Source: Stegostoma tigrinum (lineage: Eukaryota). From it: 64,000 bases of DNA. Below, in pieces: positions 9,771 through 64,000 of this stretch. The notes beneath the pieces are model-generated. The model made no database searches, was not told the origin of the DNA, and worked only from the letters and a program-made list of their open reading frames with translations. Positions within the stretch are counted from its first letter, which is position 1. Each line of letters starts with the position of its first letter. Made by a program: the position numbers and the translations under genes. The DNA is taken from positions 13,230,421 to 13,294,420 of the forward strand of contig NC_081397.1 of assembly GCF_030684315.1 (NCBI RefSeq), given 5' to 3'.

Positions 9771-9875
9771 ATTCTACTTTTAGAAGTTAGAACATAGAAC
9801 ATAGAACAGTACAGCACCAAACAGGCCCTTCAGCCCACAATGTTGTGCCGACCATTGATCCTCATGGATGCACCC

Positions 9876-12800
9876 TCAAATTTCTGTGACCATATGCATG
9901 TCCAGCAGTCTCTTAAATGACCCCAATGACCTTGCTTCCACAACTGCTGCTGGCAACGCATTCCATGCTCTCACAACTCTCTGCGTAAAGAACCTGCCTC
10001 TGACATCCCCTCTATACTTTCCACCAACCAGCTTAAAACTATGACCCCTCGTGCTAGCCATTTCTGCCCTGGGAAATAGTCTCTGGCTATCGACTCTATC
10101 TATGCCTCTCATTATCTTGTATACCTCAATTAGGTCCCCTCTCCTCCTCCTTTTCTCCAATGAAAAGAGACCGAGCTCAGTCAACCTCTCTTCATAAGAT
10201 AAGCCCTCCAGTCCAGGCAGCATCCTGGTAAACCTCCTCTGAACCCTCTCCAAAGCATCCACATCTTTCCTATAATAGGGCGCCCAGAACTGGACGCAGT
10301 ATTCCAAGTGCGGTCTAACCAAAGTTTTATAGAGCTGCAACAAGATCTCACGACTCTTAAACTCAATCCCCCTGTTAATGAAAGCCAAAACACCATATGC
10401 TTTCTTAACAACCCTGTCCACTTGGGTGGCCATTTTAAGGGATCTATGTATCTGCACACCAAGATCCCTCTGTTCCTCCACGCTGCCAAGAATCCTATCC
10501 TTAATCCTGTACTCAGCTTTCAAATTCGACCTTCCAAAATGCATCACCTCGCATTTATCCAGGTTGAACTCCATCTGCCACCTCTCAGCCCATCTCTGCA
10601 TCCTGTCAATGTCCCGCTGCAGCCTACAACAGCCCTCTACACTGTCAACGACACCTCCGACCTTTGTGTCGTCTGCAAACTTGCTGACCCATCCTTCAAT
10701 TCCCTCGTCCAAGTCATTAATAAAAATTACAAACAGTAGAGGCCCAAGGACAGAGCCCTGTGGAACCCCACTCACCACTGACTTCCAGGCAGAATATTTT
10801 CCTTCTACTACCACTCGCTGTCTTCTGTTGGCCAGCCAATTCTGTATCCAAGCAGCTAAGTTCCCCTGTATCCCATTCCTCCTGACCTTCTGAATGAGCC
10901 TTCCATGGGGAACCTTATCAAATGCCTTACTGAAGTCCATATACACCACATCCACAGCTTGACCCTCATCAACCTTACTAGTCACATCCTCAAAAAACTC
11001 GATAAGGTTTGTAAGGCATGACCTACCCCTCACAAAGCCGTGTTGACTGTATTTGATCAAGCCATGCTCTTCCAGATGGTCATAAATCTTATCCCTCAGA
11101 ATCCTTTCTAACACCTTGCAGACGACAGACGTGAGACTTACCGGTCTATAATTGCCGGGGATTTCCCTATTTCCTTTCTTGAAGAGAGGAATTACATTTG
11201 CCTCTTTCCAGTCCTCAGGTACGACTCCAGTGGAGAGCGAGGATGCAAAGATCTTCGCAAGTGGCGAAGCAATTGCATTTCTCGCTTCCCAAAGCAGCCG
11301 AGGACAAATCTGATCCGGGCCTGGCGACTTGTCAATCTTAATGTTTGACAAAATTTTCAGTACATCAGCTTCCTCTATCTCTATCCATTCCAGCATGCAC
11401 ACCTGCTCTTCAAAGGTTTCATTCACTACACAGGTCGTTTCTTTCGTAAAGACAGAAGCAAAAAACTCATTTAGGGCTTCCCCTACCTCCTCAGGCTCCA
11501 CACACAAGTTCCCTATGCTATCCCTGATCGGCCCTACTCTTTCTTTGACCATTCTCTTATTCCTCACGTAAGTGTAAAATGCCTTTGTGTTTTCCCGGAT
11601 TCCTTCTGCCAAGCCTTTCTCGTGCCCCCTCCTGGCTCTCCTCAGACCATTTTTGAGCTCCTTCCTTGCCTGCATGTAATCCTCTCTAGCTGAACTTGAC
11701 CCTAGCTTCCTCCACCTTATGTAAGCTACCTTCTTACTTTGCACTAGAAGCTCCACCGCTCTCGTCATCCAAGGTTCCTTTATCTTACCCCGTCTTGCCT
11801 GTCTCAGAGGGACATATTTACTCATCACTCCCAACAACTGTTCCTTAAACCATCTCCACATGTCTATAGTTCCCTTACCATGGAACAACTGCTCCCAGTC
11901 CATGCTTCCTAACTCGTGTCTAATCGCATCATAGTTTCCTCTTCCCCAATTAAATATCCTCCCATTCTGCCTAATCCTCTCCTTCTCCATAGCTATGTAG
12001 AATGAGAGAGTGTTATGGTCACTATCACCAAAATGCTCTCCCACCACAAGATCTGATACCTGCCCCGGCTCGTTTCCGAGCACCAAGTCTAGAATGGCCT
12101 CTCCCCTCGTCGGCCTGTCAACGTACTGCGTTAGGAAACCCTCCTGAACACACCTTACAAAAACAGCTCCATTCAAATCTTCTGCTCGAAGGAGGTTCCA
12201 ATCAATATTAGGAAAGTTAAAGTCACCCATTACAACAACCCTACTGCGTCCACACTTTTCCAAAATCTGTCGACCTATGCTTTCTACAATCTCCCTGCTG
12301 CTATTGGGGGGCCTGTAGTAAACCCCTAACGAGGTGACTACTCCCTTGCTGCTCCTAATTTCCACCCATACTGACTCAGTAGGCAGATCTTCCTCGACAA
12401 TGGAAGCTTCTGTAGCTGTGATACCCTCTCTGATTAGTAGTGCTACACCCCCTCCTCTTTTTCCCCCCTCCCTATTCTTTTTAAATGTTCTAAACCCTGG
12501 AATATCCAGCAACCATTCCAGCCCATGAGAAACCCATGTCTCTGTTATGGCCACAACATCATAGCACCAGGTACTGATCCATGCTCTAAGTTCATCACTT
12601 TTATTCCTGATACTCCTTGCATTAAAGCAAACACACTTTAACCGATCCCTTGGTTCCTTCCCAGGAAAATCCTTCCCACTAGCTGGTCTACCTCTTGCTA
12701 CTGCCTCACCTGCATCAACGCTCACCTCTGGTATACAGCTCAGGTTCCCACCCCCCTGCCATACTAGTTTAAACCCTCTCGAACTACTCGAGCAAACCTT

Positions 12801-12884
12801 CCACCCAGGACATTGGTCCCCTTCCAGTTCAGATGCAACCCGTCCTTCTTGTACAGGTCCCACCTTCCCCAGAAGGCATCCCAA
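9876..12884 (-). CDS. CR1 ORF2: APE endonuclease + reverse transcriptase (open frame; the listed start is TTG, true entry probably via the ORF1 junction at ~12770)
   Basis: 1002 uninterrupted codons. APE motifs FNARSI, AITETW, GDFNFP and SDH. RT motifs YRPVSL, DFSKAFD, GVPQGSVLGPLLF and FADD. Confidence 0.93.
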   Translation of the reverse strand: MGCLLGKVGPVQEGRVASELEGDQCPGWKVCSSSSRGFKLVWQGGGNLSCIPEVSVDAGEAVARGRPASGKDFPGKEPRDRLKCVCFNARSIRNKSDELRAWISTWCYDVVAITETWVSHGLEWLLDIPGFRTFKKNREGGKRGGGVALLIREGITATEASIVEEDLPTESVWVEIRSSKGVVTSLGVYYRPPNSSREIVESIGRQILEKCGRSRVVVMGDFNFPNIDWNLLRAEDLNGAVFVRCVQEGFLTQYVDRPTRGEAILDLVLGNEPGQVSDLVVGEHFGDSDHNTLSFYIAMEKERIRQNGRIFNWGRGNYDAIRHELGSMDWEQLFHGKGTIDMWRWFKEQLLGVMSKYVPLRQARRGKIKEPWMTRAVELLVQSKKVAYIRWRKLGSSSAREDYMQARKELKNGLRRARRGHEKGLAEGIRENTKAFYTYVRNKRMVKERVGPIRDSIGNLCVEPEEVGEALNEFFASVFTKETTCVVNETFEEQVCMLEWIEIEEADVLKILSNIKIDKSPGPDQICPRLLWEARNAIASPLAKIFASSLSTGVVPEDWKEANVIPLFKKGNREIPGNYRPVSLTSVVCKVLERILRDKIYDHLEEHGLIKYSQHGFVRGRSCLTNLIEFFEDVTSKVDEGQAVDVVYMDFSKAFDKVPHGRLIQKVRRNGIQGNLAAWIQNWLANRRQRVVVEGKYSAWKSVVSGVPQGSVLGPLLFVIFINDLDEGIEGWVSKFADDTKVGGVVDSVEGCCRLQRDIDRMQRWAERWQMEFNLDKCEVMHFGRSNLKAEYRIKDRILGSVEEQRDLGVQIHRSLKMATQVDRVVKKAYGVLAFINRGIEFKSREILLQLYKTLVRPHLEYCVQFWAPYYRKDVDALERVQRRFTRMLPGLEGLSYEERLTELGLFSLEKRRRRGDLIEVYKIMRGIDRVDSQRLFPRAEMASTRGHSFKLVGGKYRGDVRGRFFTQRVVRAWNALPAAVVEARSLGSFKRLLDMHMVTEI

Positions 12885-13663
12885 TTATCAACATATCTGA
12901 AACCCTCCCTCCTACACCAGCTGCGTAGCCACGTGTTCAGCTGCGCCCGCTCCCTGTTCCTCACCTCGCTATCTCGTGGCACCGGTAGTAAACCAGAGAA
13001 CACTACTCTGTTCGTCCTGCTCTGCAGCTTCCATCCTAACTCCCTGAAATCACTTTTTATATCCTCAAACCTATTTCTGGCTATATCATTTGTGCCAATA
13101 TGTAACACGATTTCTGGCTGTTCACCCTCCCCTTTCAGAACTTTATACACCCGATCGGAGACGTCCCGGACCCTGGCACCAGGGAGGCAACATACCTTCC
13201 GGGAATCCCGATCTTGCCCACAAAATCTCCTGTCGATTCCCCTAACTATCGAGTCCCCTACCACGAGTACTTTTCTATTCTGCCCCCTTCCCTTCTTTGC
13301 CACAGTGTCAGGCTCAGTGCCAGAGAACTGACTACTATGGCTTTCCTCTGGTAGGTCAACCCCCCCAGCAGTATCCAAAACGGTATACTTATTGCTGAGG
13401 GGAATGCCCACAGGGGATCTCTGCACTGTCTGTCTGTCCCCTTTCCTCCCCCTAACTGTAACCCATCTATCCTCGTCCTGAGCCTTAGGAGTGACCAACT
13501 CCCGATAACTCCTCTCAATTACCCCCTCTGCCTCCCGAATGATCCGTAGTTCATCCAGCTCCAGCTCCATTTCCCTAACACGGTTTTCAAGGAGCTGTAG
13601 CTGGGTGCACTTCCCGCAGATGTAGCCAGCGGAGACGTGTGCCACATCTCCCAACTGCCACAT
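12764..13663 (-). CDS. CR1 ORF1p: zinc finger/coiled coil + SGNH esterase domain (N-terminus truncated)
   Basis: YICGKC and an acidic coiled coil, then SGNH blocks VVGDSIVRG, LHIGTND and DGLHLN. Ends REGLN*. Confidence 0.9.
   Translation of the reverse strand: MWQLGDVAHVSAGYICGKCTQLQLLENRVREMELELDELRIIREAEGVIERSYRELVTPKAQDEDRWVTVRGRKGDRQTVQRSPVGIPLSNKYTVLDTAGGVDLPEESHSSQFSGTEPDTVAKKGRGQNRKVLVVGDSIVRGIDRRFCGQDRDSRKVCCLPGARVRDVSDRVYKVLKGEGEQPEIVLHIGTNDIARNRFEDIKSDFRELGWKLQSRTNRVVFSGLLPVPRDSEVRNRERAQLNTWLRSWCRREGFRYVDNWDAFWGRWDLYKKDGLHLNWKGTNVLGGRFARVVREGLN
12767..12776 (-). promoter_or_regulatory. Candidate -1 ribosomal frameshift site (tandem slippery heptamers G_GGU_UUA and U_UUA_AAC)
   Basis: ORF1 ends GAG GGT TTA AAC TAG. 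The -1 frame reads TTT AAA CTA GTA TGG (FKLVW) and is the ORF2 frame. Confidence 0.6.
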
Positions 13664-14253
13664 TTTGCAGGTTTTCTTTGATGTTCAAGTATCTGCTCCA
13701 CAACACAAATCAGATTTTACTTGTTGCCAAATGTGTAAAGTGCTAGAAATGAAACTGTTAGAGCTTTTAGCATTGAATGTCTCTGGCAGAGTGCCTGAGG
13801 GCTGAGGATATTCCACAATATTCAGGCTGTGGTACAGTTGAAATTTTATTCTGGGATTGGTCACTGTCTTGTCTAAATGTGCTCAGAGTTTAATATTCAT
13901 TTTCTTTGAAAGTTCACCATACAATATCCTCTTCAATTTATTGGAACAGTTCATGAGAATTCTGCTAGAAAAGTCAACAGCTTTTTTTTCTCTGATGGAG
14001 CGACCAAATGATATTTAGTTTATGATCACAGCAATTACCATGGATTTAAATGCATGGGAATTGGACTCCTTAGCTCAAATTCTGTTCTGTTTATCTCTTA
14101 TCATGAAAAGCTAGCTCTCTGATCTGAAATCCATGACAAGAAATCATTTTGAATGTTACATGTTCTGAGGCTTGCAGTGTATGTGATTTTCATGGCTGTT
14201 ACATGTTGTAGCACGTGTTGGGATTGTGCAGGTATTTGCAACTCATTGTAAAT

Positions 14254-16073: not shown

Positions 16074-16386
16074 CTGGAGGAAGAACAGAATTCTCCTGTA
16101 AATCAACATCCAACGAGTTTGCAAATATTAAAACTGATCAAGGCAAAATTGAATTAATACTCATAACACTTCGTTGTTTTAAAGCCAACAATTCAAACAG
16201 AGAAGAGGCTGGCTCCATAATTTACCTGAGCTCCTACTCGTCTCTTTCTTTACGCGAAATTCTGAAACAATTTATTAAGATGCAATGAATTGAATGCTTA
16301 CACAGTTCAATACCCAGCTCCCAATACACTACCCATTTAAAGGAAGGACAACAGACACTATTTAAAACGAAACACACTACGAGTGC

Positions 16387-17091
16387 AGGTGCAGAACACC
16401 TCCGCTCAGTTCGCAACAAACAACTGCACCTCCCAGTCGCAAACCATTTCCACTCCCCCTCCCATTCTCTTGATGACATGTCCATCATGGGCCTCCTGCA
16501 CTGCCACAATGATGCCACCCGAAGGTTGCAGGAACAGCAACTCATATTCCGCCTGGGAACCCTGAAGCCATATGGTATCAATGTGGACTTCACCAGTTTC
16601 AAAATCTCCCCTTCCCCCACTGCATCCCTAAACCAGCCCAGTTCATCCCCTCCCCCCACTGCACCACACAACCAGCCCAGCTCTTCCCCCCCACCCACTG
16701 CATCCCAAAACCAGTCCAACCTGTCTCTGCCTCCCTAACCGGTTCTTCCTCTCACCCATCCCTTCCTCCCACCCCAAGCCGCACCCCCAGCTACCTACGA
16801 ACCTCATCCCACCTCCTTGACCTGTCCGTCTTCCCTGGACTGACCTATCCCCTCCCTACCTCCCCACCTACACCCTCTCCACCTATCTTCTTTACTCTCC
16901 ATCTTCGGTCCGCCTCCCCCTCTCTCCCTATTTATTCCAGTTCCCTCCCCCCATCCCCCTCTGTGATGAAGGGTCTAGGCCCGAAACGTCAGCTTTTGTG
17001 CTCCTGAGATGCTGCTTGGCCTGCTGTGTTCATCCAGCCTCACATTTTATTATCTTGGAATCTCCAGCATCTGCAGTTCCCATTATCTCTC
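16387..17091 (+). mobile_element. 5'-truncated Penelope-like element (same family as 6739-8632)
   Basis: C-terminal GIY-YIG sequence (AEHLRSVRNKQLHLPVANHF...) followed by the pLTR. 15-bp TSD ACACACTACGAGTGC at 16372-16386 and 17092-17106. Hammerhead core mutated (GTGATGA at 16963). Confidence 0.9.
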
Positions 17092-61441: not shown

Positions 61442-63004
61442 ACCCACAATTTCAATGAAGCAGTTGAACCATTTTTCGTTTGTAAATGATTCTCGGTATC
61501 TATAATTAATGTCCCTAATCTTTATCTTTGTTTACACAAACGTTCTAAAAATTAATGTGCTGGTCCCTGTCCCTTTCTCCGTTACTTTCGGTTGCCTTCC
61601 TACCCAGTCTCTCCTCCCTCCCTGCACAGATGCATATTTATCGTCACTCAGTCATTTTTTCCAGCACCTACTTTATGTTCCAGTTATTATTTACCCCATG
61701 ATCAGGAATTTCACCCCCTGGAAAGAAAACTAACTGCTCGAGTCCCACGAACATATTTTGCAGAATACTTGTCATTGAGGATTTCAGCTGTGGGTGAGAG
61801 GCTTTCAAAATGAACTGAGATAAAGCCCGAGCCAGGATTGCAGTCGCAAGTGTGAAACTGTGTTCAAGGACAATATGGGAGGGCAACTTCAAACTATTGT
61901 TTCAAGTTTTAACCCGCTCACCCGGAAGAAAAACGTTGTGTACGTTTTTATAAATACATCAATGTTAAAGTGAATTAAATTCAAAGAAAAATTAAACTGT
62001 TCATTCCTCTTTGTGAAACTCCCCCCACCCCACCACATATCCTACATGTTGGTTTTTTTTTCAAATTTGTCCCAATAGGGTATGAACGCTGGATTTCACC
62101 CGCGAAAAATTATGATCTCTTATTTGAGTCCCATTAGTAGAAATGTCGTGCGATTCCTTTTTCAATTTCCAAATCTGTCAGGGAATTTATCCGATTTTTT
62201 TTCAGTTTGCAGTGTGTGGGGCTTTCTGCTGTCGGTGAGAGGCTTTCAAAATGAACCGAGACCGTCCGGAAAGACTGATCCAGCCCAATAAGTGAGGGCT
62301 ATTTTACAATGTTTTCGGAAAACGGTGTTGCTTAGGGAGTGGCAGAGAGAGATTATGTGAAGTGAACATTTTTAACTGAAAGGAAATTAAATCGTGGCCA
62401 TTAATGCAAAAATACTTGTAAAACCTCTTCCTCGTATTGCCCATGTTGGCGGGCTTTTTAAATCGCAAAGAAAACGGTTGAATATTGGCGCCGGTATTTT
62501 TCTACGGTTTCCACGCAGAGGAATTTTGTTTTATTTTTAAAATCTCCCCGCGGGTTCTATCCAGTTTTGCAGAAAGCTATAAATGAGGCTTTCTGCTGTC
62601 GGCGGGAAAATTTCCAAGTGAACCGAGATAAAAGCAGAACAGCTGCCGGACTGGCATCGCAAAAGTAGAAATATTGTTGATCTTGTGCAACAGGGAGCGC
62701 GATTGTAAAATATTGTTTAAAGCAGTATTGAGTTCAACGAGAAAGAAAAAGTTGTGTGATACTTTTATCATTATATCCGGGTGCTGATGTGAATTAAATT
62801 AAATTAAAGCTGTGCAGAGAATAACTTTCGGCGGGCTTTTCTTTCCCCCTTCCGCTTAATCTTGTTTTTTGGGGGGCGGGGTAACTTCAAGATTGAAAAC
62901 AGACGGATTTAACAAGGCCGGGGAATCAGACAGAGATGGTGTGAAGTGTACAAGTGTATTCTAAAAGTATATTATCTGAAGTATGAACGCATTTTTCCTT
63001 GTTT

Positions 63005-64000
63005 AAGATAGTAAAATGTGAGGCTGGATGAACACAGCAGGCCAAGCAGCATCTCAGGAGCACAAAAGCTGACGTTTCGGGCCGAGACCCTTCATCAGAG
63101 AGGGGGATGGGGTGAGGGGGACCTGGAATAAATAGGGAGAGAGGGGGAGGCGGACCGAAGATGGAGAGAAAAGAAGATAGGTGGAGAGAGTGTAGGTGGG
63201 GAGGTAGGGAGGGGATAGGTCCGTCCAGGGAAGACGGACAGGTCAAGGAGTTGGGATGAGGTTGGAGGTAGCTGGGGGTGCGGCTTGGGGTGGGAGGAAG
63301 GGATGGGTGAGAGGAAGAGCCGGTTAGGGAGGCAGAGACAGGTTGGACTGGTTTTGGGATGCAGTGTGGGCGGGAAGAGCTGGGCTGGTTGTGTGGTGCA
63401 GTAGGGGGAGGGGACGAACTGGGCTGGTTTAGGGATGCAGTAGGGGAAGGGGAGATTTTGAAACTGGTGAAGTCCACATTGATACCATTAGGCTGCAGGG
63501 TTCCCAGGCGGAATATGAGTTGCTGTTCCTGCAACCTTCGGGTGGCATCATTGTGGCAGTGCAGGAGGCCCATGATGGACATGTCATCTAGAGAATGGGA
63601 GGGGGAGTGGAAATGGTTTGCGACTGGGAGGTGCAGTTGTTTGTTGCGAACTGAGCAGAGGTGTTCTGCAAAGCGGTCTCCAAGCCTCCGCTTGGTTTCC
63701 CCAATGTAGAGGAAGCCACACCGGGTACAGTGGATGCAGTATACCACATTGGCAGATGTGCAGGTGAACCTCTGCTTAATGTGGAATGTCATCTTGGGGC
63801 CTGGGATTGGGGTGAGGGAGGAGGTGTGGGTCAAGTGTAGCATTTCCTGCGGTTGCAGGGGAAGGTGCCGGGTGTGGTGGGGTTGGAGGGCAGTGTGGAG
63901 CGAACAAGGGAGTCATGGAGAGAGTGGTCTCTCCGGAAAGCAGACAGGGGTGGGGATGGAAAAATGTCTTGGGTGGTGGGGTTGGATTGTAAATGGCGAA
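63005..64000 (-). mobile_element. Young Penelope-like element running off the window end
   Basis: ORF 62926-63843 has NVVYCIHCTRCGFLYIGETKRRLGDRFAEH (GIY-YIG). pLTR present. Confidence 0.92.
63069..63098 (-). ncRNA. Minimal hammerhead ribozyme core in PLE terminal repeat
   Basis: ctgatgaagggtctcggcccgaaacgtcag. Only the stem-II loop differs from the other intact copies. Confidence 0.7.

Follow-up and report, generated by a model that had tools for sequence, protein, structure and literature searches.

The 64,000-nucleotide stretch of the Stegostoma tigrinum genome analysed here (the window) contains a CR1 LINE whose ORF1 ends on the heptamer U_UUA_AAC and a stop codon, with ORF2 open one base back. 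This raises the question of how ORF2 is translated. How LINEs in general translate ORF2 is regarded as unsettled (PMC3894237), and the studied cases point to reinitiation. From the sequence we consider it likely that −1 programmed frameshifting at U_UUA_AAC yields an ORF1-endonuclease-reverse transcriptase fusion. If this is true, CR1 LINEs share the retroviral solution, their reverse transcriptase bears the esterase ORF1 at its N-terminus, and the start of CR1 ORF2 belongs at the heptamer and not at a downstream Met. In sharks and rays CR1-group elements make up 22-34% of the genome, and in most vertebrates they are described as the dominant retrotransposons (PMC13343379).

Layout of the element and its junction

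The element has the features of an esterase-type CR1. ORF2 combines an APE endonuclease with a reverse transcriptase, and ORF1 is an SGNH esterase as judged by its domain match, its match to PDB 4C1B and its homologs. A (TGTTCTA)3 tail replaces poly(A), the 5' ends vary and thousands of copies are dispersed over the genome. The rows labelled CR1 in Table S2 of PMC13343379 hold near-identical junctions. A domain search found no protease domain in ORF1 or ORF2. The window copy is 5'-truncated at 13671, so that about 10 ORF1 codons are missing; its identity to sister copies reaches 99.9%, and in full-length sister copies ORF1 comprises 311 aa from Met.

Table 1. Features of the CR1 copy (positions in the window)
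Feature	Position	Strand	Basis
ORF1, SGNH/GDSL esterase type, ending ...EGLN*	12764..13671	minus	Lipase_GDSL_2 1.4e-13; PDB 4C1B E 6e-29
Slippery heptamer T_TTA_AAC in ORF1 phase, conserved element	12767..12773	minus	sequence and genome comparison
G_GGT_TTA overlapping T_TTA_AAC, not conserved by the lineages	12770..12776	minus	55/97 copies
ORF1 stop, TAG in the window and TAA in other lineages	12764..12766	minus	adjoins heptamer
G-run GGGGGGTGGG (GGGGGATGGG in most lineages), candidate unstructured stimulator	12747..12756	minus	
AUG-less linker, 49 codons, −1 frame (FKLVWQGGG...), runs into endonuclease	12627..12773	minus	
APE-type endonuclease domain, ORF2 codons 87-290	12015..12626	minus	Pfam match
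Reverse transcriptase domain, ORF2 codons 569-810	10455..11180	minus	
ORF2 frame, stop-to-stop open, 1002 codons	9876..12884	minus	
3' tail of three TGTTCTA units, preceded by a short 3' UTR	9788..9808	minus	sequence reading

The original prediction had read the end of ORF1 as GAG GGT TTA AAC TAG and placed ORF2 in the −1 frame (TTT AAA CTA GTA TGG, FKLVW). Both were borne out on the minus strand, the ORF2 frame running from 12773 and the first two bases of the ORF1 stop finishing a Leu codon of that frame. The absence of an early ORF2 AUG also held: the first ATG is codon 219 (12230), within the Pfam endonuclease match, and the TTG given as start is indeed the first codon past the upstream stop. 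The junction thus has a heptamer of the type X_XXY_YYZ in the phase of the upstream ORF (Y = A/U, Z not G; PMC7618472) and a downstream ORF that is open in the −1 frame from the heptamer onward, as expected for canonical −1 frameshifting. On mammalian ribosomes U_UUA_AAC is reported to be one of the most shift-prone heptamers (PMC5009743). A lone TTTAAAC says little, because we counted 18 on the two strands of the window.

The heptamer is under nucleotide-level selection

The genomic copies were collected with a pattern anchored on the ORF1 end and independent of the heptamer, for which reversed-pattern controls gave 0 and 11 matches. T_TTA_AAY_TAR was found at exactly this place in 4810 of 5741 matches. 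An earlier pattern (2922 matches) demanded the heptamer and was left out as a conservation test. From a sample of 100 copies we removed three that were out of register (L082, L102 and L144). TTTAAAC/T was present in 89 of the remaining 97, and the other eight differed by one or two bases. All eight multi-copy lineages kept the heptamer. Across them codon 24 always ended in T although the encoded residue differs (G, D, L, C or A), codon 25 was TTA throughout and codon 26 was AAC or AAT. None of the 26 other Leu codons in the same stretch was TTA, and codons for the same residue elsewhere in the stretch were identical in 196 of 382 lineage pairs. As judged by these comparisons between copies, the heptamer is under nucleotide-level selection beyond protein constraint.

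We also looked at the copies that depart from it. Synonymous Leu variants numbered 42 genome-wide (TTG 25, CTA 17), compared with 55 missense controls of the same classes (15 for TTG and 40 for CTA). As they are scattered over the lineages and no commoner than the controls, no amplified lineage used them. There was no amplified lineage with the equally slippery U_UUA_AAA either (31 copies with AAA versus 33 with AAG, seven of the latter being near-identical copies on a single contig), so the constraint on Asn may be partly at the protein level. A 1-nt insertion of T or A in the heptamer was observed in 23 genomic copies. Such copies speak for a reading in which polymerase or reverse transcriptase stutter, on DNA or on RNA, would create templates with ORF1 and ORF2 in frame that act as the true masters. 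However, 23 copies set against 4810 and spread over many lineages show no excess over other single changes (15-40 each), and no fused lineage has been amplified. We rejected fused DNA masters on these grounds and regard the reading as scarcely credible.

A second, overlapping heptamer, G_GGU_UUA, had been proposed at the same site. It is present and in phase, but it is not conserved (Table 1); whole lineages have GAT, TGT, GCT or CTT there and we rejected it as a second conserved site. Among aligned contigs no variant or indel is listed at 12764-12773, although downstream positions known to be variable are also unlisted, so we gave this observation no weight.

Conservation is not confined to this genome. 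The suggestion that other CR1 ORF1 proteins end in LN proved correct in 81 of the 86 homologs that reach the C-terminus, which come from sharks, rays, coelacanth, frogs, turtles, lizards, a hummingbird and a mormyrid. In only 3 of the 81 is the residue before LN one that no T-ending codon encodes (E, Q, K, M or W). FKL was found ahead of the endonuclease start motif in a tortoise (P0115), a shorebird (P0155) and stingray (P0121, P0033) protein, and overall in 8 of 71 proteins (1.3 expected), four of the eight being near-identical. Of 516 candidates only one, the gene model P0121, was a longer protein with both esterase and endonuclease.

At the DNA level we used the first 400 nt of the consensus rows in PMC13343379 Table S2, which contain indel errors. 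By eye, 18 of the 28 heptamer-plus-stop matches lie at an ORF1 end. They include alligator, crocodile, bearded dragon, bullfrog, coelacanth, bowfin and halosaur as well as elephant shark (a chimaera), stingray, sawfish, catshark and dogfish. A search with only the G-run retrieved seven CR1 rows, and in each the junction lies immediately upstream; in one it is clipped at the start of the row and in another the spacing has collapsed. The junction alignment called for by the original prediction came out in its favour among the lineages of this genome, where the heptamer holds at synonymous positions with ORF2 in the −1 frame; the consensus rows show the heptamer and stop. The heptamer is absent from distant esterase LINEs. 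The metagenome scan returned only distant relatives (23-39% identity), and there was no vertebrate CR1 DNA in the viral contigs, prokaryote genomes and plasmids scanned.

An open linker and the routes to ORF2

The linkers between heptamer and endonuclease span 41-66 codons, open in the −1 frame and with stops in the others. We located the endonuclease motif in all but 12 of the 97 copies. Of these 85 copies, 68 have it in the −1 frame and 17, scattered over lineages, are shifted; the frame offset was identical in all lineages for which we could place the endonuclease start. No in-frame AUG precedes the endonuclease in 21 of 22 in-frame copies of the window's lineage and in 16 of 18 of lineage A. 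An in-frame AUG at this place had been named as evidence against frameshifting, and lineages B, E and F do have one, at unrelated sites: at the stop in E (UAAUG), at linker codon 26 in B and at 36/39 in F. Comparison of the lineages thus establishes that the linker is open in the −1 frame and that no start codon in it is conserved.

These linker AUGs could be used by internal initiation (through an IRES, by leaky scanning or from an RNA that is shorter or spliced), the heptamer being kept for some other RNA-level reason. Near-cognate starts are also at hand, as TTG, CTG and GTG codons occur in the linker of the window's lineage and in the 37 codons over which its ORF2 is open upstream, and for LINEs an IRES has been suggested (PMC3894237). 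However, no start codon is common to the lineages, and with Met at 19 of 966 ORF2 codons a linker of 50 codons has about a 6 in 10 chance of containing one. The −1 frame of lineages A, B, C and E is closed 5 codons upstream. The TAA lineages have no AG at the stop and there is no pyrimidine tract at the junction. We consider internal initiation very improbable.

Termination-reinitiation would produce a separate ORF2p: ribosomes would resume in the −1 frame, either at the ORF1 stop or immediately past it, on the AUG where there is UAAUG and independently of AUG elsewhere. According to reviews SART1 uses UAAUG, and the L1 route is unconventional and AUG-independent. Lineage E has UAAUG in 10 of its 11 copies (10 of 97 overall, all E), and so do three of the 18 consensus junctions, one from catshark and two from dogfish. 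At the codon that overlaps the stop, lineages A and C read ATT, corresponding to near-cognate AUU, and two consensus rows read GTG. In distant esterase LINEs of the metagenomes an in-frame stop is often followed by an AUG two or three codons later. Reinitiation also accounts equally well for an open, variable linker. It leaves unexplained the selection on T_TTA_AA upstream of the stop, even in lineage E, where TTTAAAC is kept in 11 of 11 copies despite UAAUG. The overlapping codon varies (ATT, GCT, GTA, ATG, GAT, AGT, AAT), so that in five of eight lineages the restart would fall on GTA, GCT, GAT, AGT or AAT; the window itself reads TAG TAT. The frame offset is moreover constant, which reinitiation would not require. 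We judge this route unlikely.

Under frameshifting a minority of ribosomes would slip by −1 at the heptamer and produce a single ORF1(esterase)-linker-endonuclease-reverse transcriptase protein of ∼1270 aa, beside an excess of ORF1p. The fusion would stay whole, since no protease domain was found in either ORF. Its junction would probably read ...EGLN-LVWQ.... The peptides first put forward, REGLKLVWQ and REGFKLVWQ, have to be corrected: under the X_XXY_YYZ model (PMC7618472) tandem slippage predicts ...EGLN-LVWQ, with EGLK-LVWQ as a minor product and EGFK-LVWQ unexpected. The adjacent stop and the G-run may act as the pause signal.

The downstream signal and known systems

The G-rich tract noted downstream of the stop exists (GG at 12760, G6-T-G3 at 12756-12747). 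The G-run begins 10 nt past the heptamer and 7 nt past the ORF1 stop and is conserved, yet weaker in older lineages. The structures attributed to it fared less well. Folding of lineage representatives gave no conserved CAGG/CCUG stem. A three-tier G-quadruplex pattern was found in 0 of 10 representatives and a two-tier pattern in 6 of 10, lineage A having none; fewer quartets mean less frameshifting (PMC3919603). There was no conserved downstream fold, with z-scores from −1.5 to +2.1 for the 10 representatives and +0.25 for the window, an RNAalifold consensus of −0.48 kcal/mol with 2 pairs and no Rfam match. A stable stem-loop or pseudoknot 5-9 nt downstream, as in canonical −1 frameshifting, was not found, pseudoknots being probed indirectly, and a duplex search yielded no complementary C-rich partner common to the lineages. 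We thus rejected hairpin, G-quadruplex and long-range partner alike. As no hairpin, pseudoknot or G-quadruplex is conserved, a classical RNA structure is probably not what stimulates the slip, which hints at an unusual stimulator.

A wider proposal is that the whole jawed-vertebrate CR1 clade, from chimaeras to crocodiles, makes a gag-pol-like ORF1-endonuclease-reverse transcriptase replicase by −1 frameshifting with a structure-free signal. The slip would be driven by the adjacent stop and by a G-run that is unstructured, fixed in its spacing and probably bound by ORF1p or a host G-tract protein. We offer this tentatively and regard it as doubtful in its full extent.

In the literature searched we found no account of a CR1 frameshift, though one may have been suggested in the 1997 chicken and turtle CR1 papers. 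In the main text of PMC13343379 the terms frameshift, overlap, start codon and translation do not occur and ORF2 expression is not addressed. The canonical vertebrate CR1 elements of that study likewise have an esterase ORF1 (compare ZfL2-1, PDB 4C1B; PMC3905857), an APE and reverse transcriptase ORF2, a short tandem-repeat tail, frequent 5' truncation and the same junction in consensus rows. SART1 with its UAAUG coupling and mammalian L1 with unconventional reinitiation are also bicistronic LINE RNAs, and CR1 lineage E has the UAAUG; they have an ORF2 AUG and a separate ORF2p, whereas most CR1 lineages have no junction AUG. Among APE-type non-LTR elements, Dictyostelium TRE5-A and TRE3-A need a −1 frameshift for ORF2 according to a figure legend in PMC5911963. 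Neither a heptamer nor an experiment was found for them, and the word 'frameshift' is absent from PMC3159450; they belong to a different clade and have a different ORF1. At the −2/−1 site of PRRSV nsp2, PCBP and nsp1-beta stimulate through an unstructured C-rich motif (PMC4937337). This site and CR1 both have a short unstructured run at a 10-nt spacer, a parallel in spacing only, as the CR1 run is G-rich and has no known binding protein.

A further comparison is with viral −1 frameshifting at U_UUA_AAC (IBV; PMC5009743) and retroviral gag-pol. CR1 differs from the viral sites in that no stem-loop or pseudoknot is conserved at 5-9 nt, no protease domain was found and the stop adjoins the heptamer in every lineage. 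It shares with these systems the in-phase X_XXY_YYZ heptamer, the downstream ORF in the −1 frame and the order of a structural protein upstream and a polymerase downstream.

The CR1 element and its ORF1/ORF2 junction

The ORF1 of the element shows similarity to GDSL/SGNH esterase families and to the solved LINE ORF1 esterase 4C1B. ORF2 contains APE endonuclease and RT domains and the 3' tail consists of three TGTTCTA units. The closest named match among ORF1 homologs in the database protein search was 99% identical and belongs to the zebra shark annotation. Sister loci are up to 99.9% identical to the window's copy; 18 of 30 align as far as the window's 5' end and in 15 of 30 ORF1 is complete from its Met (311 aa). 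Elsewhere in the window, a weak GIY-YIG match and a similar fragment point to pieces of a Penelope-like element.

Positions of features in the window
Feature	Position	Strand	Content
Young 5'-truncated CR1 LINE	13671 to ~9788	-	ORF1 and ORF2 domains, tail
Heptamer T_TTA_AAC	12773-12767	-	end of ORF1
Weak GIY-YIG match	62926-63912	-	
Similar fragment	16234-16738		

As originally noted, ORF1 ends GAG GGT TTA AAC TAG and ORF2 lies in the -1 frame (FKLVWQGGG...), with its first ATG at codon 219, within the endonuclease. A -1 frameshift at the heptamer giving an ORF1-EN-RT fusion is in our judgement the probable explanation. ORF1 would be translated cap-dependently and most ribosomes would terminate after Asn. 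A minority would slip by -1: tRNA-Leu would re-pair with UUU and tRNA-Asn with AAA, and CUA would be read next. The predicted junction product is ...EGLN-LVWQ... within a fusion of ~311 + 963 = 1274 aa, and, as in gag-pol, the slip would keep the ratio of ORF1p to RT high.

Conservation of the heptamer in the zebra shark genome

The first search pattern included the heptamer (2922 matches) and was thus unsuited as a conservation test. The heptamer-free anchor required DGLHL of the esterase, Gly four codons further on and, at codon 27, a triplet resembling a stop. It gave 5741 genome matches versus 11 for the reversed control, and 4810 of the 5741 carried T_TTA_AAY_TAR. The first 100 anchor matches served as copy sample; three were out of register and dropped, and the remaining 97 were grouped by similarity and by eye into eight multi-copy lineages and five singletons. 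TTTAAAC was found in 87 copies and TTTAAAT in 2, and 8 differed by one or two bases.

In all eight lineages the heptamer Leu was TTA and the preceding codon ended in T, though its residue was G, D, L, C or A. TTA occurred at 0 of 26 other Leu positions in the same ORF1 stretch and in 6 of 83 ORF2 Leu codons; elsewhere, codons for the same residue agreed in 196 of 382 pairs across lineages. The expected conservation at synonymous positions was borne out genome-wide: TTG (25) and CTA (17) were no more frequent than missense changes of matching mutation class, used as controls (15 and 40). Both variants are scattered across lineages. They are post-insertion decay, and no lineage with a broken heptamer amplified. 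Copies in which a 1-nt insertion fuses ORF1 and ORF2 (n=23) formed no lineage, and template slippage as the route to ORF2, a poor fit, is the least probable explanation. The overlapping G_GGT_TTA, proposed as a second site, is kept in only 55 of 97 copies and is not conserved. The window's own contig also carries seven nearly identical ORF1 ends of old CR1 copies (G000:C56, 202120-3598488), which were likely spread by local segmental duplications.

Of the 97 copies, 85 yielded the endonuclease motif: 68 have it in the -1 frame, and 17, spread over lineages, are frame-shifted. The linkers between heptamer and endonuclease start (41-66 codons) vary in sequence and are open in the -1 frame, with stops in the other frames. 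Lineages A, B, C and E have the -1 frame closed ~5 codons 5' of the heptamer. The proposed AUG-less start of ORF2 holds for lineage A, where 16 of 18 in-frame copies lack a Met 5' of the endonuclease, and for the window's lineage (21 of 22), but lineages E, B and F carry an AUG upstream of this domain. In lineage G the sole Met before or at the endonuclease is at its first motif. Internal initiation also fits poorly and is very unlikely.

Reinitiation at the ORF1 stop is an unlikely general explanation, though it may run in parallel in lineages with UAAUG, which 10 of 11 lineage E copies show. Lineages A and C have ATT in place of this ATG; linker Met occurs at codon 26 in lineage B and at codons 36 and 39 in lineage F. 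Met accounts for 19 of 966 codons, so linker AUGs are expected here and there by chance. The heptamer is present in 11 of 11 lineage E copies and thus the AUG has not released it even there. UAAUG and heptamer occur together in lineage E copies (e.g. L061, L105) and in consensus rows ScyCan_CR1-1a, SquAca_CR1-17a and SquAca_CR1-6c, covering two different ORF1 lineages. Frameshifting and stop/start coupling might both be in use in such elements.

Depth of conservation

Among the best 120 of 145 ORF1 homologs found, 81 of the 86 reaching the C-terminus end in LN, in agreement with the LN* ending originally suggested for amniotes. Their hosts are sharks, rays, coelacanth, frogs, turtles, lizards, a hummingbird and a mormyrid, with identity down to 31%. 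The residue before LN is one that no T-ending codon encodes in 3 of 81 cases, versus 40 and 24 at the two preceding positions, which is only suggestive of a T-ending codon as three other nearby positions are equally low (3-5 of 81). FKL precedes the endonuclease start in gene models of a tortoise (P0115), a shorebird (P0155) and a stingray (P0121, P0033); LN* in one frame and FKL in the other would force T_TTA_AAY.

Within the first 400 nt of each consensus row in Table S2 of PMC13343379, 18 of 28 heptamer-plus-stop matches lie by eye at an ORF1 end (12 species, elephant shark to alligator), 3 of the 18 with UAAUG. Searching Table S2 by the G-rich tract shortly 3' of the stop (G-run) alone gave nine matches to GGGGGATGGG: seven CR1 rows, all with the junction directly upstream, and two tuatara L2 rows. 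The junction feature is real and selected at the nucleotide level across jawed vertebrates. The ray-teleost split is placed at ~462 Ma in a passage of PMC13343379; horizontal transfer could shorten the ages of some shared junctions. Shark-type ORF1 and ORF2 proteins of CR1 (P0006, P0123) are filed as bacterial (Pseudomonas aeruginosa, Carnobacterium) on short contigs and are likely host DNA contamination.

The heptamer was absent from distant esterase LINEs at 79 metagenome loci (endonuclease match in 29), several with ORF2 in ORF1's frame after one stop; the signal thus characterises the vertebrate CR1 clade. A single TGA separates same-frame ORFs in L178, L179, L185, L204, L213, L222 and L245, with C as the next base in most cases (TGA CTA/CCA/CCT); we take this to resemble a readthrough context. 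Several single-TGA metagenome LINEs have an ATG two or three codons further, which fits reinitiation. In another esterase LINE family (L189, L207) ORF1 ends TAG GTC TTT; L189, with ORF2 in frame and its first Met just before the endonuclease, is a readthrough candidate.

The G-run and comparison with known systems

The G-run is conserved and starts 8 nt after the stop (distances of 7 nt from the stop and 10 nt from the heptamer). Lineages A, B, C and E read GGGGGATGGG there, as do alligator, chimaera, sawfish and catshark rows; lineages D, F and G have close variants and older lineages weaker forms. It encodes Gly as GGG twice, versus 24 of 79 ORF2 Gly codons, which suggests RNA-level constraint. 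Folding of 45-100 nt 3' of the stop was no better than shuffles (z -1.5 to +2.1 for 10 lineage representatives, +0.25 for the window), the consensus fold of 12 junctions reached -0.48 kcal/mol with two pairs, and Rfam gave no match at the junction. The suggested G-quadruplex fared no better: the three-tier pattern is absent in the 10 representatives and a two-tier form is possible in 6, including the window and excluding lineage A.

Chicken and turtle CR1 were reportedly described in 1997. Our literature search found no paper reporting a CR1 frameshift; subscription papers (1997 chicken and turtle CR1, Kojima 2005, Alisch 2006, Kapitonov 2003) could hold an earlier proposal. The accessible portions of PMC13343379, PMC3905857 and PMC11835228 do not mention one. 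Sections of reviews (PMC3894237, PMC5972666, PMC2881922, PMC5009743) describe UAAUG coupling for SART1 and unconventional reinitiation for L1, and ORF2 initiation as an open question. A review legend (PMC5911963) describes TRE5-A and TRE3-A of Dictyostelium as dependent on a -1 frameshift, to which the accessible part of PMC3159450 adds nothing.

The usual distance between slippery site and stimulator is given as 5-9 nt in part of PMC7618472, and the G-run, 7 nt from the stop, would match it provided that slippage takes place with the ribosome stalled at the stop codon. In PRRSV, according to a passage of PMC4937337, PCBP/nsp1-beta binds a C-rich motif at a 10-nt spacer, and the CR1 G-run lies at the same spacing from its heptamer. 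Although the canonical folded stimulator is missing, the CR1 site would work like a -1 programmed frameshift site.
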